Source of the DNA: Escherichia phage ES17
Length of the DNA: 64,000 nucleotides
Strand: one strand, 5' to 3'
Sequence record: NC_070984.1
Part shown: one piece after another, positions 20,814 through 57,257 of the stretch
How the letters are laid out: each line of letters opens with the position of its first letter
How positions within the stretch are numbered: the stretch's first letter is position 1
Translations under genes and position numbers: made by a program
Notes under the pieces: generated by a model
Databases searched by the model: none
Told to the model about the DNA's origin: nothing
The model's input: the letters and a program-made list of their open reading frames with translations, nothing else

Positions 20814-22097
<1,284 letters not shown>

Positions 22098-22340
22098 AAT
22101 GCATCTCTTTATAAATAGTTTCCGTGTTCTTCTTCCAGTTAGATAAACCGGTAAGAACCCTCTGAGCAACTTCATCAGCTGCCCTACTTCTTTCAATCTC
22201 TAACTCTTGCTGGTGCTTCTCTTTGTCCAGATTACTGCTGTCTGTTTGGTACTCGTTAAACTTCATACCACCAAAGAATACAAGAGCTGAGAAAATGATA
22301 AACCCTATATTATCACTTAATGTACTTTGCATACTGTCTC

Positions 22341-22367
22341 CAACGAAAAAGCCACCCGAAGGTGGCT
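22341..22367 (-). terminator. Intrinsic terminator (UUCG-tetraloop hairpin)
   Basis: Minus-sense AGCCACCUUCGGGUGGCU followed by UUUUUCG, 20 nt after stop of SSB gene. Confidence 0.75.
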
Positions 22368-22388
22368 AAGCTATAACAAGGAGAGTTA

Positions 22389-23135
22389 TCAGAAAGGCGA
22401 ATCGTTATCATCTTCATAAGTAGAAGCAGGCTCTTTATCAATCGTAGGAATTGAAGGAGTAGCTTCTTTCTGTTCTGTTTCAGAAGCACGAGTAATTTCA
22501 CGACCAGCCAGAGGCATGTTCTTAGCGTCATTAGCTTGAGTAAGCAGATTGCGCTGGAACGGGAACATCAGTTGATAAGATGCTACGTTCTCGTCGGTTT
22601 CAGCATACGGTTCGAAGAATACCAGAGGACTACGAGCTTCACCAACTGCTGCACGATATTTAGTTGGGATTGGAGAAATGGTCTTGATGGAGTTTTTAAC
22701 TTCACCAGCTTTGTTAGTGTAAGAGTTAACCAGAATGTTAACAGGCTGACCTAACAGAACATCCTTGAACCAAGACAGATCACCTTTCAGTGCTTGAATA
22801 CTTGGGTCAACCATCTTGCAAAGATCAAGAATACCAGAGTTCTTAGCTCGTGGGTTTACATCATAGCTCTTGAACTGGCAAGCCGGACGTGGTTCTAATG
22901 CCTTACCATCGGAATCTTTACCAGTAGCATCAACACCAATCAGCTCGAAAGCTAAATCCATACGGAAAGCCGGATTCTTAGGAGTTACTGCTTTGGTCTT
23001 CGGGTCAATCCAAGGGTCACGATTGTGAACACCCAAACCTACTACACGAACGATACGTGCTTCGTATTCACCATCAGGGATTACATCGTAGTTGGATTTA
23101 CGGGAAGAAGTTGCGATAGTTGGAATCATAGACAT
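22389..23135 (-). CDS. ssDNA-binding protein (T7 gp2.5-like)
   Basis: 248 aa with acidic C-terminal tail ending YEDDNDSPF; own promoter motif upstream and terminator downstream. Confidence 0.5.
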   Translation of the reverse strand: MSMIPTIATSSRKSNYDVIPDGEYEARIVRVVGLGVHNRDPWIDPKTKAVTPKNPAFRMDLAFELIGVDATGKDSDGKALEPRPACQFKSYDVNPRAKNSGILDLCKMVDPSIQALKGDLSWFKDVLLGQPVNILVNSYTNKAGEVKNSIKTISPIPTKYRAAVGEARSPLVFFEPYAETDENVASYQLMFPFQRNLLTQANDAKNMPLAGREITRASETEQKEATPSIPTIDKEPASTYEDDNDSPF

Positions 23136-23194
23136 AGTGTAATTTCCTTATTTAATTTGAAAGATTGTTGCTCTCTTTGAGCGGTTATGTATAA

Positions 23195-23203
23195 TATACA
23201 TTA
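23195..23203 (-). promoter_or_regulatory. TAATGTATA promoter motif upstream of SSB gene
   Basis: Minus-sense ATGTAATGTATATTATAC about 60 nt upstream of ATG 23135. Confidence 0.5.
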
Positions 23204-23386
23204 CATATATAGTGTAGGAACTACCGGAAGGTAGTAGGTTTTGTCCAAACAAAAGTCTCTTTAGAATTATTTGTTGGAGATTGTCTCTTATAAACCCGAG
23301 ACTGCCTAGCAGTTACATAAGCTCTAGCTTTTTCTGTAGCTGCATACTTATGGTTAAATTTCATGGTAGTATATCTCTAAGTGCTA

Positions 23387-23395
23387 TAATGTATA
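23387..23395 (+). promoter_or_regulatory. Orphan plus-strand TAATGTATA motif with no plus-strand gene downstream
   Basis: GCTATAATGTATATAAG; faces an AT-rich, repeat-containing 300-bp non-coding stretch. Confidence 0.35.
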
Positions 23396-23827
23396 TAAGT
23401 TATAGCTGATAAAGTTATTGCACGGGACTGACGACGATAAGGCGCAGACGACAATCTCTCATAAGTTTGTAAGAAATTGAGAGACTACCGGAAGGGCAGG
23501 AGCCACCTGCGAGATAAAAATAGAGAATTAAGGAATCCTTGATTTAGGTTGTAGGGACTCCTAGGGACTTTGATTCTCTATTTAAAAGAATATTAATTAC
23601 TTATTACCTAAATAATTAACTAACTTACTTAAACCAAATTCAATAAGAATAGATAAAAAGATTATTCCTAAGAAAGCTAAAAAGTAAAGGATATAAGTTA
23701 CCATTCAAGTAAACCTTTAAAGTTAGATTTTTCTACTATCCTCTGATAACGAAGATTAGAATCAGCTTGTTTCTTTAACATCTCATTATATTGATCTCTG
23801 ATAGAGTCTTTATGTACTACAGGTTCT

Positions 23828-24331
23828 TTAAATAACGAGATCTTGTTCTTTTCTTCTTTCATCAAAGACCTTCCTAATCTCTTGCAGAGAAACAGCTTTA
23901 TAGTTAATTTGCTCCATTGATGTACAGAAATATCTCCAATCATCAATTACGTGGTTATGAGTATGAGCATAAATATTAAACTTCCCTCTCATCTCATCAG
24001 TGTGAATAGGAATATGAGTTACCCAAAACTCTTTATATTTATAATCACCAGAGATTCTACGGAAGACTTTCATCATATCAGGGAGAAGTTCTAACCTGTC
24101 ATGGTTCCCTAAGACTAGATGCTTCTCTCCTCTTACTTCAGCGATGATATCAAGGGCATACTTTTCAAACACCCAATCACCGGTAAAGAAGATTTTATCA
24201 CGTTTAGTTACATGATCAAATGCAGCTAGGATTGCTTTGTCATGTTCTTCGATGGTTTTAAATTGCTTACGAAAACTACAGATGTTGCGATGGCCTAAGT
24301 GACCATCCCCTGCAAAATAAACTTCAGCCAT
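23828..24331 (-). CDS. Calcineurin-like metallophosphatase
   Basis: GDGHLGH ... GDWVF ... GNHD ... HTH motif series. Confidence 0.7.
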   Translation of the reverse strand: MAEVYFAGDGHLGHRNICSFRKQFKTIEEHDKAILAAFDHVTKRDKIFFTGDWVFEKYALDIIAEVRGEKHLVLGNHDRLELLPDMMKVFRRISGDYKYKEFWVTHIPIHTDEMRGKFNIYAHTHNHVIDDWRYFCTSMEQINYKAVSLQEIRKVFDERRKEQDLVI

Positions 24332-24340
24332 AAAGACCTC

Positions 24341-24556
24341 TTAGATAGTACACCCATCACAAGTTAAGTCACCTAGCAGGGACAGGGAAAGTAATCTGGA
24401 TTGCTCATCGCTGTATAGTTGATCAATCTCTTCTTTAAGTTTTGCCAACTCCATAAAGTTAATGAGCTGACCATGTTCGAGGCAGTATGTTTTTAGTACG
24501 AACAAAACTTCAGCGTTGGTTGAGTCTTCACTTGAGTATTTATCAATGTATTCCAT
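24341..24556 (-). CDS. Hypothetical protein
   Basis: 71 aa track ORF, co-oriented, tight spacing. Confidence 0.3.
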   Translation of the reverse strand: MEYIDKYSSEDSTNAEVLFVLKTYCLEHGQLINFMELAKLKEEIDQLYSDEQSRLLSLSLLGDLTCDGCTI

Positions 24557-24558
24557 TT

Positions 24559-24780
24559 TTATGCCACATCTCCTTGTTTGTTGTTAATAATATCCAGTGC
24601 TGTATAAGCTTTACCTGTTCCTAAGTATTCCAAAACTGGAGGACTCTTCTTTTCTTCAGCGACTACATAAGGTGTGATCTTCCCTTTCAGTACAGCCTGA
24701 GATGCTTTAGCACTGTCTTCAGAGGTATGAATAGTAGTAAGCCCTTTCTTTCCAATTCTATAAGTGTGAACCCAAATCAT
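24559..24780 (-). CDS. Hypothetical protein
   Basis: 73 aa track ORF, co-oriented. Confidence 0.3.
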   Translation of the reverse strand: MIWVHTYRIGKKGLTTIHTSEDSAKASQAVLKGKITPYVVAEEKKSPPVLEYLGTGKAYTALDIINNKQGDVA

Positions 24781-24940
24781 TCTTCTTCCTCATATTCCCA
24801 ATTTCTTTCATAATATCCAGAGTTATAGTTTAGGGCGCACTTCTCGGCCTCTTCTATGTCGTCGGTGTTTAGGATATTCACCCACCCTCCAGCTTCATCA
24901 AAACCTTCTTCTTCCTCGTTAATCCATACACTATATTTCT

Positions 24941-25333
24941 TCATCGAATCACCAAAGGCTCTTCAGAGTACACAGGAGCGGCTATTTCTACAGGAGGTGC
25001 TGCCCTAAGGTCATTAAGTCTTACGCCCTTCAGCATACCGTCTAGGTGGTCCTTTTTGGGGATTCCAACAGGGAAGTCATCAATCCAGATATCGACGAAG
25101 AAGCCTAACTGTCGACACACCTCATCCTTCTGCACACCATTACAAAAGATGACAGGGATTTGCAGGGTCTCTGCATCATAGAGGATATCCACGTTATCAT
25201 AACCATTAGGCTCTGAGAAACGGAAAGTCACGAATCTTACATCATGTCCATACCCTTTCATCAATCCTATCACATCTCTCCACAGTCGTCTGTCTGCTGT
25301 GTAAGTGTCATCATAATCTAAACCAATATTCAT
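24941..25333 (-). CDS. HAD-superfamily phosphatase (nucleotidase-like)
   Basis: N-terminal MNIGLDYDDT (DxDxT motif I) and C-terminal WIDD; start moved to ATG 25333 because the terminator hairpin abuts the track TTG start. Confidence 0.5.
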   Translation of the reverse strand: MNIGLDYDDTYTADRRLWRDVIGLMKGYGHDVRFVTFRFSEPNGYDNVDILYDAETLQIPVIFCNGVQKDEVCRQLGFFVDIWIDDFPVGIPKKDHLDGMLKGVRLNDLRAAPPVEIAAPVYSEEPLVIR

Positions 25334-25349
25334 GTCAAACCCTTTAGAC

Positions 25350-25373
25350 AAGAAAAGCCGCCCGAAGGCAGCT
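25350..25373 (-). terminator. Intrinsic terminator (UUCG-type hairpin)
   Basis: Minus-sense AGCUGCCUUCGGGCGGCU + UUUUCUUGUCU. Confidence 0.6.
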
Positions 25374-25565
25374 TCTTATTTAACTGTTCACTTTAGCTTC
25401 AAGTGTTTCGTTTTCAATACTCAAGTCAATCACTACACCAGTAAGCTCAACGACTGCTTGGCGAAGGGCATCTTTACCCATAGAGTGTACTTGAGATAAG
25501 AAGAAAGCTTTACCTTCTTCAGTGGATAGGGTTTCTTTTAATTCAGAAGCAGTCATTGATATTCC

Positions 25566-25760
25566 TTATGTTATGTTATAAATTCGCATGATTGTACCAC
25601 CGGTTAGTTCAATTTCGGCAATCTTCTCATCTCGTTCTAAATCTGTATACACTAGCACATTCTCAAATACACCTGTTGCGTCAGTATAAAGGATGTTATA
25701 CTTCGGAGGTGGCTTACGGTAGATACCTTCCATCACTCTTTCTCCTCTCGTTCTTTCCAC
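25566..25760 (-). CDS. Hypothetical protein
   Basis: 64 aa track ORF. Confidence 0.3.
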   Translation of the reverse strand: MERTRGERVMEGIYRKPPPKYNILYTDATGVFENVLVYTDLERDEKIAEIELTGGTIMRIYNIT

Positions 25761-25916
25761 AGTTCAGCAAGTTCTAAATAAAACTCAGCTTCATCAGGAC
25801 GTCCTTGTTCATTACAGATGGCGCTCTGACGATAACACCAATCCGATGGCATCTCTTCCACTTCAATCTCCTTGTTACGAACCAATCAATAAGAATAGTT
25901 CATTCATCTTATTTAT

Positions 25917-26108
25917 TCACTCTACCAATGCAGGTACTTCTATCCTTTTAACTGTGAATGACTTGTTTGGAAACTTTCGAACTAGCTCTGCTGCTTTGGT
26001 TATTGCTAAGTTCTCTGTCTCAAAGATACACAGTTGACCATTTAATGCTACGAGAGTGGAGCCACCACTGTAGATGGCCCAAGATTGATAATAACCACGA
26101 ACACTCAT
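25917..26108 (-). CDS. Hypothetical protein
   Basis: 63 aa track ORF immediately downstream of polymerase gene. Confidence 0.3.
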   Translation of the reverse strand: MSVRGYYQSWAIYSGGSTLVALNGQLCIFETENLAITKAAELVRKFPNKSFTVKRIEVPALVE

Positions 26109-26116
26109 AACTCACC

Positions 26117-27961
26117 TTAGTGCGTATGCATCCAGTTAAGTCCAATCTGACAATCAGAGGCCAGAGGACATTCCATATTCAAATACTCACCAGCCTTCTT
26201 AACACAAAGCTCGGTGTGCTCTTTGAGTTTCTGTACATCGTTACGATTAACTGAGAACTGGCCCTCGTCGTGCATATCAATTACCTTAGCACAACGAACT
26301 CCATCCTTCTCAATCCACTTGTTAAGGAACATCATAGCGTATTTCATAACAACAGCACCAGCACATTGCAGGAGAGTGTTAAGTGCTTTATGAACCATAA
26401 CTTTACCAGTGGCATCTCGTCTCATTGTAATCTTACGACCATCAACACCAATCAAGTATCCTTGAGCAGCTTTCTCTGTCATACGATCAATGAGGATTGC
26501 AATACATGGGTTCTCTGCCAAGAAACGTGCTCGCATCACTGAACCTTCGTCAGCCCCACCACCTACAATTGAGCCAAGCTTAGCGTCGCCAGCACCGTAG
26601 TTGAATGCATAGATAAACGTTTTAGCATTGTCACGAGTAGGAAGACCAGCAAGTTTCTGGTTGTGGGAGTGGATATCACCTTCAAGGAGAATATCACGAT
26701 ACATAATAGCAGAAGCTAAACCACGTTCTGCCAGAGCTTTCTTAGCTGGGTTGTTCTCTTCAATTGCCTCAGCAAGCATATCCCTACACTCTTTAATGAG
26801 GTAGTGAGCGAGCATACGAAGTTCAAGTCCAGAACCATCATACCCTAAGAATACTTCTTTACCAGCGGGTATGTAATATTTGTAAGCACCTATAGGTTTA
26901 TCTTTCTTCCCCGGCTTACCTTTCTCGTAAATTACGTTAGTACCTTTTCGTATATAACAACCATCAGGAACAACGTTAGTAATAACGAAAGGACGAGAGT
27001 GATCACTGTCTGAGTTATAGTCAGACTCAAACAAACTGCGACACTCGTGACCAAACAGACCACGGGAGGGAATATTAACCACGATACGATGTTTGAATCG
27101 AAAAGTCGGCGTAGCGCAGCTGTTAGCTTCTGCCGAAAGTTTACCATCTTCGCGTTCCTTTGCTATGAGTCCACTGATAAGACCTAGCCTGTGAGCCGCT
27201 ACAACGCGTCTCTTAAGCAAACTTCCGACACTCCCTAGCTCACCCCCTAACCCTTCTTCAAGAGTCTCCTCGAGGTTTGTAGGAGCTGTAGGCCACTTGT
27301 TTGATGTGGCTAGTGCTTTCTTAATCTCATCAAACGTTACAGGATTACGGCGATTAGGGTTCAACCCCAAACCAAATACGTAAGCCTTCATGTAATTCTT
27401 AGTCTTAAACCTGAAATGCTTTTCTAAGAACTTCTTAATATCAGCGTCAACCATCTCGGCTGTCTGCTTCTGCTTAGCATTGCCTCGCATCCAAGCAGTA
27501 TACCATGCTTGGTACGTTCCATACTTTCTCATATCTTTCTTGATTTCGAAAGTATTCCAAGGCTTCTTAGATACGTTAAACTCTGGAGGAAGAAAGCCTT
27601 CATCCATAAGAGCTTCTTTAACTCGTGCATCTTTCGATGGGTCAAAGTCTACGTATTCGACACAGGTGAAAGCTCCACCAATATCTTCTCTCTTCAGCCC
27701 AACCCTATCACAATAGGCTTGAGGCCACTTCTGCAAAGCTCCAGACTTCTTAAACGGCTTCATATAAGTAGAGCCATCTAATCTCATCTTAGGTAAGAGA
27801 GGAATCAACTCTCTGTCAATATTAACAATAATCTCTTTAAGGAGGTGAACATACCACCGAGCATTTCTTCGGTTGAAACTCACTCCGTGCTTTGCTTGCT
27901 TAGAGATTATATCAGCGACAGTCATCTCTGTCAAAAATGGAAGAGCGTCCGGGTTGCTCAC
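26117..27961 (-). CDS. DNA polymerase, family A, T7 gp5-like polymerase domain (no exonuclease domain)
   Basis: Motif A FLGYDGSGLELRMLAHYL, motif B PTRDNAKTFIYAFNYGAGDAKLG, motif C VIDMHDEGQF; near-identical spacing to T7 gp5 C-terminal half. Confidence 0.85.
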   Translation of the reverse strand: MSNPDALPFLTEMTVADIISKQAKHGVSFNRRNARWYVHLLKEIIVNIDRELIPLLPKMRLDGSTYMKPFKKSGALQKWPQAYCDRVGLKREDIGGAFTCVEYVDFDPSKDARVKEALMDEGFLPPEFNVSKKPWNTFEIKKDMRKYGTYQAWYTAWMRGNAKQKQTAEMVDADIKKFLEKHFRFKTKNYMKAYVFGLGLNPNRRNPVTFDEIKKALATSNKWPTAPTNLEETLEEGLGGELGSVGSLLKRRVVAAHRLGLISGLIAKEREDGKLSAEANSCATPTFRFKHRIVVNIPSRGLFGHECRSLFESDYNSDSDHSRPFVITNVVPDGCYIRKGTNVIYEKGKPGKKDKPIGAYKYYIPAGKEVFLGYDGSGLELRMLAHYLIKECRDMLAEAIEENNPAKKALAERGLASAIMYRDILLEGDIHSHNQKLAGLPTRDNAKTFIYAFNYGAGDAKLGSIVGGGADEGSVMRARFLAENPCIAILIDRMTEKAAQGYLIGVDGRKITMRRDATGKVMVHKALNTLLQCAGAVVMKYAMMFLNKWIEKDGVRCAKVIDMHDEGQFSVNRNDVQKLKEHTELCVKKAGEYLNMECPLASDCQIGLNWMHTH

Positions 27962-27977
27962 TTTATACTCCTTTAAA

Positions 27978-28391
27978 TTATTGGTAAAGTAAATCTGTAA
28001 ATGCTTGGTTATCTTCTACTACATCCAAGGATGTGGAATCAACAGCATATGTTCTCATTGCTGCATTTGTTTGTGCCCAAGTAGATTGAGAATAAGAAGA
28101 CCTAACTTCACGAGGCTGTTCTCGTACCAGATGAGCCACAACCCTCTGATTAGCAACTTCTTCTCTTTCTCTAATAGCTCTCTGAATGTAGGCCAGCTTC
28201 ATACCCCAAGCTTCTTCAAACTCTTGAGGGTGTTTATCGCTGATAACCACATACTGACGTTCAGGAATACCAGAGCGAATCTCTGATAATAATTCATGGA
28301 ACAAATCTAGTTCATGTTCAGTGAGATTCATTTCGATATCATCCCACTTGAGAACTAAGAAACGGTTTTGGTGTCTAGCTGGTAATGGCAT
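27978..28391 (-). CDS. Hypothetical protein
   Basis: 137 aa track ORF. Confidence 0.35.
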   Translation of the reverse strand: MPLPARHQNRFLVLKWDDIEMNLTEHELDLFHELLSEIRSGIPERQYVVISDKHPQEFEEAWGMKLAYIQRAIREREEVANQRVVAHLVREQPREVRSSYSQSTWAQTNAAMRTYAVDSTSLDVVEDNQAFTDLLYQ

Positions 28392-28554
28392 CCTACTCCA
28401 CCTCTACTTCAATGTAAGTTCTCTCACCGACGTCATCTTTTAAGACCCATGACTTGGCATCTTCTTCAGACTTAAAAGCTTTCACAACGCTGTAACCACC
28501 TTCCCATTCATCACCGAACCAGCGCTGTCCTACGTAAATGTATTCTTTCATTAC

Positions 28555-28839
28555 TCAACCTTTTGGGAGTGGCATCAAAAATTCCATAGCAGATTTAATC
28601 TCATTATTGATTCGTGAATCACGATAAGAGATAAACTTACCTTTGCTATCACGTAACATCACATGGGTTCTGGCTGTTTTGTGAGGGAGCAATGTGATAC
28701 TAGTTGGAATAGCATCAATCCCTACAGCGTATTTGTCAATAGTCTTACTTTCAGCCAACAGATAAGACCAAGTACGCGGTTTCTGCTCCGGGCGGTTAGG
28801 GTATGTGTCCCGAATTTGAACCATAGCTAACTTATTCAT
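28555..28839 (-). CDS. Hypothetical protein, tandem paralog A
   Basis: 94 aa; KTARTHVMLRDSKGKFISYRD...LMPLPKG parallels next gene. Confidence 0.4.
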   Translation of the reverse strand: MNKLAMVQIRDTYPNRPEQKPRTWSYLLAESKTIDKYAVGIDAIPTSITLLPHKTARTHVMLRDSKGKFISYRDSRINNEIKSAMEFLMPLPKG

Positions 28840-28840
28840 A

Positions 28841-29095
28841 TTAAACTCCTTTAGGGAATGGGATGAGATTTTCTACTGCAACACGGAAAGATTTTTCTAC
28901 GTTCTTATTCTTATAAGAGATAAATTTTCCATCAGCTCCTCGAAGGAGTACGTTAGTGCGAGCTGTATTTGGGTTTTGTTGAATCATAGAACGAATGATG
29001 TTCTCTGAACCTCTATGCTTATTGGTGAATTTCCAACTGATAGTTTTACCGGTACGAGTTACATCAATGATATTTACGATTTTTACAATAGACAT
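28841..29095 (-). CDS. Hypothetical protein, tandem paralog B
   Basis: 84 aa; NTARTNVLLRGADGKFISYKN...LIPFPKGV. Confidence 0.4.
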   Translation of the reverse strand: MSIVKIVNIIDVTRTGKTISWKFTNKHRGSENIIRSMIQQNPNTARTNVLLRGADGKFISYKNKNVEKSFRVAVENLIPFPKGV

Positions 29096-29138
29096 ATTTA
29101 TTACCTAAGAAGTTTAATTTGGTTTATATAAAAGAAAA

Positions 29139-29159
29139 GGCCACCTGATTAGGCAGCCT
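29139..29159 (-). terminator. Intrinsic terminator (G-U containing stem)
   Basis: Minus-sense GGCUGCC-UAAUCAG-GGUGGCC + UUUUCUUUU after stop at 29165. Confidence 0.5.
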
Positions 29160-29164
29160 TTGTT

Positions 29165-29458
29165 CTAGAGACGAAGCCAAGTTTGATAGTCAGCTTCAGT
29201 GTAATGGTTGTTTCGAGAGTTGTTTTTCATTTCCTTGAGAGTAGCTCTCAGGTCAATGTTATGCTCTCTCCTTGTTCTATTCGGGTCTGTATCTTCTAAT
29301 AGATGGGAGTGATCACTACAAGAGTAGTGCTTATAGTGGTCCCTGTATCCTCTACTTGGAGAATACTTGGTCATTAAAGTTGCAACTCTTTTTACACCCT
29401 CTGCTTTACAGAATTTACAATAAGTGTGAATTGTACATCTTTTTGTTTCTGCTGACAC
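29165..29458 (-). CDS. Cys/His-rich small protein (zinc-binding)
   Basis: CTIHTYCKFCKA ... HYKHYSCSDHSH. Confidence 0.35.
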   Translation of the reverse strand: MSAETKRCTIHTYCKFCKAEGVKRVATLMTKYSPSRGYRDHYKHYSCSDHSHLLEDTDPNRTRREHNIDLRATLKEMKNNSRNNHYTEADYQTWLRL

Positions 29459-29468
29459 TATAACCTCT

Positions 29469-29783
29469 TTATGAGCTTAAAGCTCCTTTGCGTGCTCCAG
29501 CTGCTTTTCCAGCTCGATCACCACTTTTGCCGCCGTTTGAACGGTTTGAGCTGACTGATTCAACACGTAAGTTGCTTGACGCATTAGAGCCTCCAGACTT
29601 GACAGCTCGTTTGTGTCCAACGTCTTTACCTCTGACAGCAGCTTTTCCATCGCGCTTTTCAACGATGCGACGTGCACGGTGGCGCTGAGCATCTCCGCTC
29701 TTGCTCCCAATTCCCGTTTCACCGCGCTTGATCGCAGTCCTTCTTTCTTGTGCATAGTCTCTTTTTCCTACATGATCTGCCAT
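29469..29783 (-). CDS. Highly basic Arg/Lys/Gly-rich protein
   Basis: Strong RBS CAGGAGAAATCTA-ATG; alternative-frame ORF 29477-29755 lacks RBS. Confidence 0.4.
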   Translation of the reverse strand: MADHVGKRDYAQERRTAIKRGETGIGSKSGDAQRHRARRIVEKRDGKAAVRGKDVGHKRAVKSGGSNASSNLRVESVSSNRSNGGKSGDRAGKAAGARKGALSS

Positions 29784-30112
29784 TAGATTTCTCCTGATTC
29801 TCTTTGATTAAAGGTGTGGATGGCGTGGCAATTAGCACACAATATCCTGCACTTCCTCATCTCTTCTTTTACTTGAGATAAAGATCTGGTGTGCCCTTTG
29901 GAGAGTTCGAATGACTTAGTTAATGGATTTAAATGATCAAACTGAAGAGCAGATGCGTGGCCCTTAAAGCCACACTCAGAGCATCCATAGAATGTTTTAA
30001 CTCTACGGATAAAAGCTAGTTGCCTAACTCTTCTTTTCTCGTTATCTGCCTTTCTCTTATCTCTATTTCCTGGGTCGGCCCATCTACACGAGTCATTGCA
30101 AAACCTCTGCAT
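29783..30112 (-). CDS. HNH endonuclease
   Basis: CSECGFKGH ... FDHLNP ... CANCH motif. Confidence 0.7.
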   Translation of the reverse strand: MQRFCNDSCRWADPGNRDKRKADNEKRRVRQLAFIRRVKTFYGCSECGFKGHASALQFDHLNPLTKSFELSKGHTRSLSQVKEEMRKCRILCANCHAIHTFNQRESGEI

Positions 30113-34796: not shown

Positions 34797-34868
34797 AACT
34801 CTCTCCTGTAAAATACAAATTCTTATTGTACTCTATATACATTTGAGAGTTACCATATCTACTACCAA

Positions 34869-38182: not shown

Positions 38183-38684
38183 ACAAGAAAAGATAAACCT
38201 TAACAGTTAAGTTAACGTCCTGTTCACAATAAGTAAACATATCTTCAGTGAAAGCATCCCATGCTTCCTCTTGCTCACCATAATCGCCCTTAAGTTCTCC
38301 TAAGAACTCACCCCACTGCTTCAAACCATGACCCCTTGGGCCACGTCTAGGGTCGCCTTTCGGATACTCAGGACTGTCACCAATACGGTCAGGTTTAAGA
38401 TATCGACTAAGACATAAAGTGTCGAAGACGTTAAAACGATAGTTAATCAGATTGGGATACATCTTCTTCAGAGCACAAAGGTCGAAGTCAATAATATTGT
38501 GACCCACCAGTACATCTGCTTCTGTAAGTTTACGAATCCCATCTTCAATTTGGTGAGGCCGATAGCCCCACCTTTCACCAGTTTCAACATCGAAGATATA
38601 AATACACCATACTTTAGTTATGTCATCGTACAGTGCATTACTCTCGATATCGAATGCAAACACTTTCTTCTTTTTCTTTACCAC
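38127..38684 (-). CDS. 3'-5' exonuclease domain protein, T7 gp5 N-terminal homolog
   Basis: [37 protein letters not shown] parallel T7 DNAP exo motifs SDIEANAL / HNGHKYD / DTLVLSRL / YNVQDVVVT. Confidence 0.8.
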
Positions 38685-40468
38685 GGTGAAGCTCCATCTG
38701 CTTGGTTGACGAGAGAAGCTGCATCCTCTCCGTTAGTTAAAACGAATGGATTATCTTCATCAACTTCAAAGTCTTCCCTTTCTACAAGTCTCCCGGTTTC
38801 ACTGATATACTTAGTATAGCAGACACCTGTCTGACCGTAGTTACGTTCTTTCAGTAATCGAATGACTGAGAGGTTCTTAGCTAAGCCATCAGCTTGCTTG
38901 TCACGCTCAAAGCCAATGATACACTGACACCAACGCATAAGAGAACGAGAGCCAGTGAACTGCACTTCACGTACCTGTCCACCTTCTTCATGAGGAGCAC
39001 CACCTGCCGGAGCATTAAGGTGAGATAGCACGAAAGCGGTAAAGTCTAATTCTTTGCACATACCAGCAAGCTCGGAAGCAATCTTACTGATTTCAGTGTT
39101 AATCTCTGAAGGTGTTAAATGGGACACCAGAGCGGTAATGTTATCAAGGATGATGAACTTACACTGGTTTTCAACTACCCAGAAACGGATACACTGTTTA
39201 ATGTCTTCCCATTCATTCTGTCCGAAGTTGTCATACAAGAAGAATTTGTCTGCATAACGAAGTGCTTCATTACGCAAATCCTCCTCATCATATTCAACAT
39301 CAGGTCGGTGGAAAGGAATTGATGCCGACTTACCAGCAATGTTCTTAACAGACATGCCTACCTTCTCTTCCAAGAAGAAGCCACCTCCATTAAAACCATG
39401 TTCTAAGCACAGATGAGCAACCAGCTCATGAGCAATGAGTGTTTTACCACTCCCTACTCCACCACCAATTGCTACCACCTCTCCCCATCGAATACCGAAG
39501 GTCATCTCATTCAGAGTCTTCCACGGATATGGGATACCCCACTCCGCTTTCTTCAGAGCATCATCAAGGCAATCAAAGATTGTTACAGCACCAGCAGGAG
39601 ATTCCCGCTTTGCTGAGTACTTGAGAATGTTGAATAACTCTTGACCACGACCAGACAGAAGCATGTCATTCGCATCCTTAATCTCTTTCTCCACACCGTT
39701 GTATGGGAAAGTTCCTTTAGGAATACGAGCAAACTTAACATGAGGGAATAAAGAACGACCTTTTGTTAAAGCTATCTCACCTGCATCATCGTTGTCCATG
39801 CAGAGCACAACCTCCTCAAAACCATTTACGAAGTCTCGATTACGAGACAACACAGAAGAGATTGAACCTGCACCGAACGGTAAAGAAACACATGCTGGTT
39901 TGATGTTTGTTGCATTTGTAAAAGCTGTAAGGACATGGAAACCTGACATACAGGATAGCGGGTCTTCAAAAATGAACAGCTTCTTGTTGTACACATCTCC
40001 ACGTTGAGCTTGTGCCATACCAAACAAATCTGCTTCTTTCACACTGCCGACGTAATAGAACTTCTTACTATCTAGCAGCTTAACCTCATAACCAACGATG
40101 TTTCCATCACGTTCACGAGGAAAGAAGTAGCTGTCTGGTGTCTGACCATCAGTTTGACTGAGACCAATACGACACTCAAACCGCTCTGATACAGCTTTAG
40201 GGATTAAACGGCGAGTGAGTTCACCCTGAGGAAGCTCTAAGCAATCATCTAAGACTTCTCTCAACTCTTCAGGGGATAACTCTTTCTTCTCGTTTGGAGT
40301 AGGTGTAGTGCCCTTTTCGAACACTTCGTAATTCCCACAACGGTTACAACTTCCCCACTCCTCACCAGTCTCTTCGTTACGGAAGAGAATCATGTGGTTG
40401 TGGGTTTTATCACGACCATGAGAGATACATTCCTTACAACCTGTGTCTCCCAAAATGATCTTTGACAT
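38678..40468 (-). CDS. Primase-helicase (T7 gp4-like)
   Basis: N-terminal zinc ribbon CKECISHG...CNRCG, TOPRIM region, helicase Walker [10 protein letters not shown]. Confidence 0.85.
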
Positions 40469-54491: not shown

Positions 54492-54568
54492 TGGCGCACC
54501 CTACAGGATTCGAACCTGTAACCGACGGATTAGAAATCCGATGTTCTGTCCAATTGAACTAAGGGCGC
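54492..54568 (-). tRNA. tRNA-Arg(UCU): tRNA-Arg (anticodon UCU), CCA encoded
   Basis: Manual cloverleaf: acceptor GCGCCCU/AGGGUGC (one G-U), D stem GUUC/GAAC, anticodon loop UUUCUAA, T arm ACAGG-UUCGAAU-CCUGU, discriminator G + CCA. Confidence 0.85.
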
Positions 54569-57058: not shown

Positions 57059-57257
57059 ATTATTTACCCTTTATCAGAGATTAAAAGTAATATTATTTAA
57101 GTAAGTTATATTTAGTAAACTTATTTTCTAAGAAATTTTCAAAGGGTCTATATACAGAGCATTACCCATAGTCCCAGAATACTACCATCTTTTTCAATAA
57201 ATTTACTAAGTGGTTGGTTTATAAAGGAATTTAGTTTGTCAAATCTGGCACTAGTGA

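Follow-up and report, generated by a model that had tools for sequence, protein, structure and literature searches.

The window analysed here is a 64,000-nucleotide stretch of Escherichia phage ES17 (NC_070984.1), and our subject within it is the region to the right of gene 40, where a conserved promoter of the type used by the phage sigma factor gp36 points rightward along the plus strand with no gene behind it. We put at about even the chance that this orphan promoter belongs to an unannotated non-coding RNA gene of the phiEco32 group, whose product would be a stable RNA acting otherwise than as a replication origin. Sequence comparison itself establishes how the promoter is built and that it is conserved, that helices covary, that folding differs between the strands, and that the 3′ domain is kept to an extreme degree and is single-copy in the window. 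Firing of the promoter, the position of the RNA 3′ end, and the stability and function of the RNA are inferred only, from sequence. The locus is made up of the following elements.

23195–23225, minus strand: P40, a published middle promoter, with TAATGTATA at 23203→23195 and GGTAGT at 23225→23220 (−37 to −32); predicted start 23188
23365–23395, plus strand: orphan gp36-type promoter, with GGTAGT at 23365–23370 (−37 to −32), a variable 16-nt spacer and TAATGTATA at 23387–23395 (−15 to −7); predicted start A23402
23402–23586, plus strand: predicted non-coding RNA, about 185 nt (about 160 nt in phiEco32-type phages)
23402–23418, plus strand: hairpin H1 (AUAGCU-gauaa-AGUUAU), whose first base is the predicted +1 (A23402)
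23419–23490, plus strand: variable central module, here of type A, including both GACGAC copies and the second ACTACCGGAAGG
23428–23435/23442–23447, plus strand: type-A helix
23455–23461/23478–23484, plus strand: hairpin UCUCUCA/UGAGAGA of the type-A module
23491–23579, plus strand: near-invariant 3′ domain of 89 nt, from GAAGGGC to GATTCTCT
23496–23500/23506–23510, plus strand: hairpin H3 (GCAGG/CCUGC), with a compensatory A-U to U-A change in the relative L036 (GCUGG/CCAGC)
23508–23586, both strands: bidirectional terminator-like hairpin, common to the predicted non-coding RNA (plus) and the converging operon of genes ...42-41 (minus)
23580–23700: most AT-rich tract of the window, mostly gene 41 in this phage

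The motif TAATGTATA is the published promoter element of gp36, with transcription starting 6–8 bp downstream (PMC8948821), and six gp36 promoters have been published, namely P6, P13, P26, P40, P58 and P68 (PMC8948821, text and Table S3; PMC4331800). Since TAATGTATA is the gp36 element and P40 is among the promoters listed, the minus-strand copy at 23195–23203 is P40; the orphan promoter is absent from the list, and no plus-strand feature is annotated at its position in the GenBank records examined. A first-pass annotation of the window had noted the motif on the minus strand and on the plus strand and had read the two copies, which lie at 23195–23203 and 23387–23395, as a divergent promoter pair, and this description stands, with P40 predicted to fire leftward from 23188 and a phage-sigma promoter predicted to fire rightward from 23402. 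Its remark that no gene lies downstream of the plus-strand copy also holds: no plausible plus-strand open reading frame (ORF) follows, the only ones there being of 20–21 amino acids with TTG starts. In this respect the site departs from what is expected of a gp36 promoter, as no gene of the same orientation lies behind it and the neighbouring genes are all on the minus strand.

Support for the orphan promoter comes from its two-part structure and from its conservation. Cryo-EM of the RNA polymerase (RNAP)–gp36–gp79 complex on P68 (2025) identified base contacts at −14A, −13A, −12T and −11G and essential contacts at −37G and −34A (PMC12276001, whose position numbering we follow); the orphan promoter carries −37G, −34A and AATG at −14 to −11, in the same register as P40 and as a P68-like site of the window (34840–34866, minus strand). 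Exact copies of TAATGTATA number three in the 64 kb against 0.85 expected, a count reached in 8 of 100 shuffles, so that the 9-mer alone is weak evidence. The bipartite pattern GGTAG-N17–20-AATG, by comparison, occurs seven times in the window, both local copies included, against 2.1 expected (0/100 shuffles), and the full form GGTAGT-N16-[T/A]AATGTATA is found within the 64 kb only at P40, the P68-like site and the orphan site. Across 24 distinct versions of the locus, gathered from GenBank phages, IMG/VR, metagenomes and Logan/ENA assemblies, both promoter elements are kept in every one, and the 15–16-nt spacer between them varies freely. We regard the orphan promoter as genuine in sequence terms.

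Other gp36-type sites of the window can be set beside these. GGTAGT is present as the −35 element at the middle-type sites 23199–23225 (minus), 23365–23391 (plus) and 34840–34866 (minus) and absent at the two late-type sites examined, 1343 (plus) and 13468 (plus), and its presence or absence may be a sequence basis for middle versus late timing. A second bipartite site, GGTAGT-N16-TAATGCTCT, lies at 57160–57186 on the minus strand, in the gap that precedes the phi32_116 homologue; phiEco32 keeps it and SU7 keeps part of it, its spacer contains GGGACT, and the second most AT-rich stretch in the window (57059–57140) lies just downstream of it.

The predicted RNA folds on the plus strand at −49.4 kcal/mol (z = −3.2), and it opens with the 5′-terminal hairpin H1. 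The arms of H1 were set from fixed anchors and not by pairing: one was taken as nucleotides 7–12 downstream of the motif, the other as the 6 nt that precede an invariant TGCA. In 11 distinct sequences the paired fraction of cells is 95.5%, and in shuffles it is 72%; the paired fraction and the covariation score were each reached in 0 of 500 shuffles. Changes on both sides of the stem compensate one another in five of the six pairs, a number that 6 of 500 shuffles reach, and registers slid from the anchored one pair at 55% or less. The arm variants seen are ATAGCT/AGTTAT, AGAGTT/AACTCT, ATAGTT/AACTAT, ATAGA/TCTAT, ACATC/GATGT and ATCTCT/AGAGGT. H1 folds on the plus strand in 14 of 14 variants, and on the minus strand the window and phiEco32 types give no fold; this plus-strand-only folding in the commonest variants is due to G-U pairs. 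The P68-like transcript likewise opens with a hairpin, so that a 5′ hairpin looks like a design common to gp36 middle transcripts.

Downstream of H1, relatives carry at least four unrelated types of central module (A–D), whose distribution does not follow phage relatedness. Compensatory pairs are found within modules as well, one in the type-A helix (U-A to C-G) and two in the type-C helix. No conserved ORF was found in the predicted RNA; a plus-strand coding reading was rejected, with ORFs of at most 21 amino acids starting at TTG and indels that are not multiples of three and break the frame. When the window was searched against Rfam 15, only the tRNA passed the gathering threshold, and the best match in 23100–23750, relaxed search included, had E = 0.54, far below the gathering score. 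The tRNA gene of the window is tRNA-Arg(TCT), at 54492–54568 on the minus strand.

Conservation of the 3′ domain is extreme. It consists of H3, an A-rich linker and a long hairpin (23518–23583) containing AAGGAAUCCUU and both TAGGGACT repeats, and it is 91–100% identical at the nucleotide level between phages whose gp40 genes are 68–82% identical. The stem of the long hairpin is 12–16 bp, and the 12-bp stem has two G-U pairs on the plus strand; it is invariant and hence uninformative on covariation. A covariance model of the domain (R1) finds a single copy in the window (E = 4e-26) and no copy in the DNA examined from phages whose gp40 is 69% identical or less, which have a different, short intergenic region. 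Outside the phiEco32 group, scans of IMG/VR, metagenomes and bacterial and archaeal genomes returned for the RNA element only phiEco32-like contigs, plus three chance 20-mers. Four of the distant relatives (L012, L037, L038 and L039; gp40 64–69% identical), in which gp40 directly follows the polymerase genes, are without orphan promoter and RNA; upstream of gp40 they have another long palindrome, AAGCAT...GCTAGC...ATGCTT, together with TAATGGATA as a motif on the strand of the gene.

The hairpin that ends the element is shared with the operon converging on it. Its minus-strand tail, UAUUUUUAU, is a strong and invariant U-tract, and its plus-strand tail has 2–4 U and varies between phages (AUUU, AUU, UUUU, AAUU); the hairpin accordingly looks bidirectional, strong for the ...42-41 operon and weaker for the new RNA. 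A consensus terminator scan does not call it, because the loop is too large.

Taken together, these features suggest the following sequence. During the middle phase, the RNA polymerase of E. coli with the phage sigma gp36, helped by gp79, would bind GGTAGT, 16 nt and TAATGTATA on the plus strand, at a promoter that diverges from P40 and opposes all the genes around it. The transcript would begin at about 23402, and the RNA would open with its 5′-terminal hairpin, probably protecting the 5′ end, run on through the folded module that varies between lineages and then through the almost invariant 89-nt domain, and end at about 23586, at the long hairpin that would also terminate the converging ...42-41 operon. 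The product would most likely be a stable RNA of about 185 nt and not mainly a short-lived primer, and its invariant 3′ domain would be bound by a partner that is itself conserved, which could be a protein or else the 3′ end of the converging mRNA, to which it is complementary.

Several observations weigh against a stable RNA with a function of its own. Transcription of the plus strand is predicted, and with a plus-strand U-tract so short and variable the RNA may lack a discrete 3′ end. The most distant clade has TAATGAATA or GAATGTATT as its −10-like element, with a spacer of 15 nt. The helices alone do not account for the near-total sequence invariance of the 3′ domain, and candidate targets for base pairing did not emerge: BLAST comparison of the 3′ domain and type-A module with 5,426 E. 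coli genomes gave no homologue and no long complementarity, and RNAduplex against the 188 phage translation-initiation regions of the window gave nothing above shuffled RNA. The AT-rich tract at the RNA 3′ end, conserved in composition, fits an origin better. An earlier mention of a plus-strand RNA is also possible in the primary phiEco32 transcription papers, which lie beyond the literature covered; in the searchable literature nothing relevant to an origin or a transcriptome was found for phiEco32 or Kuravirus.

The first-pass annotation had proposed for this region a candidate origin of the T7 form. On such an account the orphan middle promoter sends RNA polymerase into the AT tract, and replication follows either when the transcript opens the DNA, or when its 3′ end primes the family-A DNA polymerase (as in T7 and T4), or through a pre-primer resembling ColE1 RNA II; in that case the replisome would load at DNA sites formed by the invariant 3′ domain and the TAGGGACT repeats. 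Much about the locus is consistent with this. A complete middle-class promoter without a gene behind it stands among replication genes, with the SSB-like gp40 adjacent, DNA polymerase A 2.4 kb away and a DnaB-like helicase also encoded. Directly after the transcribed element, 23580–23659 is the most AT-rich 80-mer of the 64-kb window (85% AT), and the AT content of the tract lies at the 98th–100th percentile in 18 of 18 loci measured, though the sequence there is not homologous and is that of gene 41, of another small gene or of the end of the phosphoesterase gene, depending on the locus. The tract is thus conserved as composition and not as sequence, as a DNA-unwinding element would be. The 3′ domain is more conserved at the DNA level than RNA folding would require, two direct TAGGGACT repeats stand 10 bp apart, and a Pfam scan of ORFs revealed no dedicated initiator protein. 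The element lies near the middle of the phiEco32 genome (about 36.8 of 77.5 kb), and the paper on the relative SU10 notes an earlier suggestion that these phages replicate their genomes in the T7 manner (PMC4281155).

Of the T7-type form, a phage-specific promoter directed into an AT-rich region is present, and this promoter is conserved, has no ORF behind it and points at the most AT-rich tract of the window. The tract does not follow immediately and without RNA release, however: it begins about 180 nt after the predicted start, past the terminator-like hairpin, so that 185 bp of folded RNA and a terminator-like hairpin intervene, neither of which T7 or T4 origins need, and termination would release the RNA, which argues against simple priming. 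A fork moving rightward would collide head-on with transcription units of the minus strand over about 40 kb. In this phage the AT tract is an annotated small gene, and a bidirectional terminator adds to AT content through its A- and U-tracts. GC skew has no inflection at 23.4 kb; GC and AT skew both track gene orientation, and hence carry no origin signal. On this evidence the label of candidate origin goes beyond what sequence supports, and we consider an origin possible, if on the whole unlikely. The stable-RNA and origin readings overlap in one form, a folded RNA dedicated to pre-priming, transcribed by host RNA polymerase with the phage sigma, which would start replication as a hybrid of T7 promoter-origin and ColE1 RNA II, the 89-nt domain loading the replisome and the module setting specificity; we regard this form as doubtful.

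Two further explanations dispense with a functional RNA. In one, which we think improbable, the element is a boundary: the hairpin would be the terminator of the upstream middle operon, and the promoter would fire converging polymerases or antisense RNA that stop read-through into gene 40, the RNA itself being functionless. The invariance of the minus-strand U-tract UAUUUUUAU fits such a role, as does the position of the element, always between the end of the minus-strand operon and P40, and the phages in which gp40 directly follows the polymerase genes, and which have no such boundary, lack the element. A scan of the next 6.6 kb (23400–30000) found no strong terminator on the plus strand, so read-through would be antisense at least that far. 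Interference of this kind, on the other hand, needs neither a compensatorily kept 5′ hairpin nor covarying internal helices nor an invariant domain of 89 nt. In the other, the plus-strand TAATGTATA is a coincidence in AT-rich DNA, and any plus-strand transcription comes from a sigma70-like site, TTGCTC(23168–23173)-16-TATAAT(23190–23195), for which the first-pass annotation had counted a spacer of 17. The count of the exact 9-mer, which as noted above is not significant by itself, and the perfect −10 hexamer TATAAT could be cited in its favour. Against the coincidence stand the significance of the bipartite form and its conserved position across the 24 versions. As for the sigma70-like site, its −35 matches the consensus at only three of six positions and lies within a covarying hairpin, its −10 varies between phages (TATAAT, TATAGT, TATATT, TATACT), and a consensus promoter scan does not report it; in this lineage, moreover, its transcript would meet a plus-strand terminator-like hairpin after about 40 nt. 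We do not find this promoter credible, and chance or sigma70-driven transcription is in our view very improbable.

Repeats that had been noted as possible origin motifs were also located. The tandem TAGGGACT repeats are present, at 23552–23559 and 23562–23569, as are the GACGAC repeats, two in number, at 23430 and 23447. Both motifs sit within RNA helices or the invariant RNA domain, which speaks against reading them as iterons: one GACGAC copy is an arm of the type-A helix. In some lineages the TAGGGACT pair turns into (G/T)AGGACT in both copies together. Iteron binding of GGGACT and a CsrA sponge with 4–6 GGA motifs were considered; GGGACT, of which one copy stands 130 bp upstream of the TAGGGACT pair, occurs 22 times in the window against 22.5 expected and so is not enriched. 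The hairpin motif ACTACCGGAAGG does occur twice as had been stated, at 23220 and 23484 (0.15 expected; 0/100 shuffles), but the hairpin ACTACC-GGAA-GGTAGT forms only at the first copy, the second lying in the type-A module without it.

The region around these elements was less empty than the description of 560 bp of non-coding DNA implied, given that it contains the annotated gene 41 and a 47-amino-acid ORF. The genes and other features of the surroundings are these.

21193–21837, minus strand: gp36 sigma factor
22389–23135, minus strand: gene 40, the phi32_40 homologue (gp40, 248 amino acids), matching phi32_40 in related records and first gene of the P40 operon
23170–23182, minus strand: hairpin GCUC-AAAGA-GAGC in the 5′ untranslated region of the gene 40 mRNA, whose plus strand contains the TTGCTC read earlier as a −35
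23221–23364, minus strand: 47-amino-acid basic ORF, annotated in one related record (PV574017), on a lineage-specific insertion
23597–23704, minus strand: gene 41, the phi32_41 homologue, a hydrophobic peptide of 35 amino acids (PHROG 24970, E = 6e-26)
26117–27961, minus strand: family-A DNA polymerase (DNA polymerase A)
38678–40468, minus strand: DnaB-like helicase

The window belongs to a Kuravirus, a phiEco32-like podovirus of E. coli: over 22300–24400 it is 99.8% identical to phage myPSH2311, and dozens of relatives are 95–98% identical over the same interval. Rightward from gp36, the minus-strand genes are those of the spanin, the phi32_40 homologue, the phi32_41 and phi32_42 homologues, the phosphoesterase and DNA polymerase A, and all of these, gp36 and the DnaB-like helicase included, are middle genes by homology with phiEco32 (PMC4281155). 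Gene 41 is absent or altered in EcoN5, LAMP, ECBP2, Paul and EK010, and its synonymous and non-synonymous changes are too few for a verdict. The highly AT-rich 120 bp that had been noted here is a real feature, with 85% AT over 80 bp, although most of it is the annotated gene 41 and so is not non-coding. Within the first codons of the DNA polymerase A ORF lies a perfect sigma70 consensus promoter, TTGACA-17-TATAAT with an upstream TG (27906–27934, minus strand).

Gene 40 had been called an SSB gene, a label that is plausible but not established. In its favour, gp40 has an acidic C-terminal tail, EDDNDSPF, ending in an aromatic residue, and an AlphaFold2 (AF2) model (pLDDT 82) gives weak Foldseek matches to OB-fold SSB, RPA, PriB and PrgE (TM at most 0.5, E of 9e-4 or weaker); against it, gp40 has no Pfam match and no sequence match in the PDB, and its PHROG matches, 6599 and 862, are both families of unknown function. 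A T7 gp2.5/SSB-like protein is the probable reading of the model and tail. With the family-A polymerase and the DnaB-like helicase, the SSB-like gp40 gives the window a replisome set that is T7-like. The hairpin in the gene 40 leader is invariant within Kuravirus, and other lineages carry GTTC/GAAC, GTCC/GGAC or TGTCCA/TGGACA, which are compensatory changes; its role at the SSB-like gene may lie in translation or in stability. In some relatives an HNH homing endonuclease gene stands between the spanin gene and gene 40 (L001 1592–2005, WFI101126; also SU10) and is absent from the window, and in L038 and L046 another HNH gene comes after gp40; the neighbourhood of gene 40 is a hot spot for insertions.

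The 47-amino-acid ORF, which has neither a PHROG nor a Pfam match, lies on an insertion (23205–23364) that alignments place only in the lineage of myPSH2311, EcM-vB1 and L040. The hairpin ACTACCGGAAGGTAGT of this insertion (23220–23235) supplies the perfect GGTAGT −35 element of P40, where phiEco32 has TAGTAC, and a consensus scan flags a plus-strand terminator-like site within it. We considered whether the two ACTACCGGAAGG copies are a target-site duplication of the insertion and rejected this, as the insertion boundaries against MN05 do not match the second copy. In phage 4E8 (OQ689734; L050 217–411), a 64-amino-acid minus-strand coding sequence is annotated over both promoters, P40 and the orphan one, and over the 5′ portion of the RNA, and is probably a spurious gene call.

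phiEco32 serves as a model for the takeover of host RNA polymerase by a phage sigma with the co-factor gp79, and a seventh, fully consensus promoter making RNA and not protein would, if real, change its transcription map. With its exchangeable modules and conserved 3′ domain, the element also defines a candidate RNA family that Rfam lacks. Current records leave the locus blank or put spurious ORFs over it. Phages of the phiEco32 group are widely isolated for phage therapy, and the intergenic region should not be treated as neutral space for the insertion of payloads. No paper describing the replication origin of these phages was found in the searchable literature, and the locus is the one concrete, testable origin candidate found in the window.

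Several known systems resemble the locus in part. The OOP RNA of lambda, 77 nt long and made from a sigma70 promoter beside the origin, was once proposed as a primer; like the RNA predicted here it is short and non-coding, has a promoter to itself, and converges on a neighbouring operon whose 3′ end it overlaps, but the overlap here would be only the shared terminator hairpin, and the two have no sequence or structural similarity. ColE1 RNA II has a length of about 550 nt; RNase H processes it, and the antisense RNA I controls it. With it the locus shares a folded non-coding RNA, a promoter some distance upstream of a possible start site and a conserved distal part, whereas the locus yielded no promoter for an antisense partner, no G-run/C-run hybrid motif and no homology. 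The T4 origins oriF(uvsY) and oriG(34) are R-loop origins, in which, as would be the case here, a middle-class promoter precedes an unwinding element and host RNAP is redirected by phage factors; the RNA predicted here has a conserved multi-hairpin fold, and none is known for the T4 origin transcripts.

The primary origin of T7 consists of the phage promoters phi1.1A and phi1.1B, which also serve genes, with an AT-rich region close behind. Our locus likewise has a phage-specific promoter, amid genes of DNA metabolism and aimed at an AT-rich tract, in a phage with a T7-like replisome; it differs in the 185 bp of conserved folded RNA and terminator-like hairpin that intervene, and in its polymerase, which would be host RNAP with a phage sigma. 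Comparison with P68 and P40 of phiEco32 itself sets the orphan site apart in opposing all neighbouring genes, in having no ORF behind it and in being a predicted promoter outside the published six. With these promoters it nevertheless shares GGTAGT at −37 to −32, the 16-nt spacer and tAATGTAtA at −15 to −7, and, like the P68-like site, it has a hairpin where its transcript would begin.

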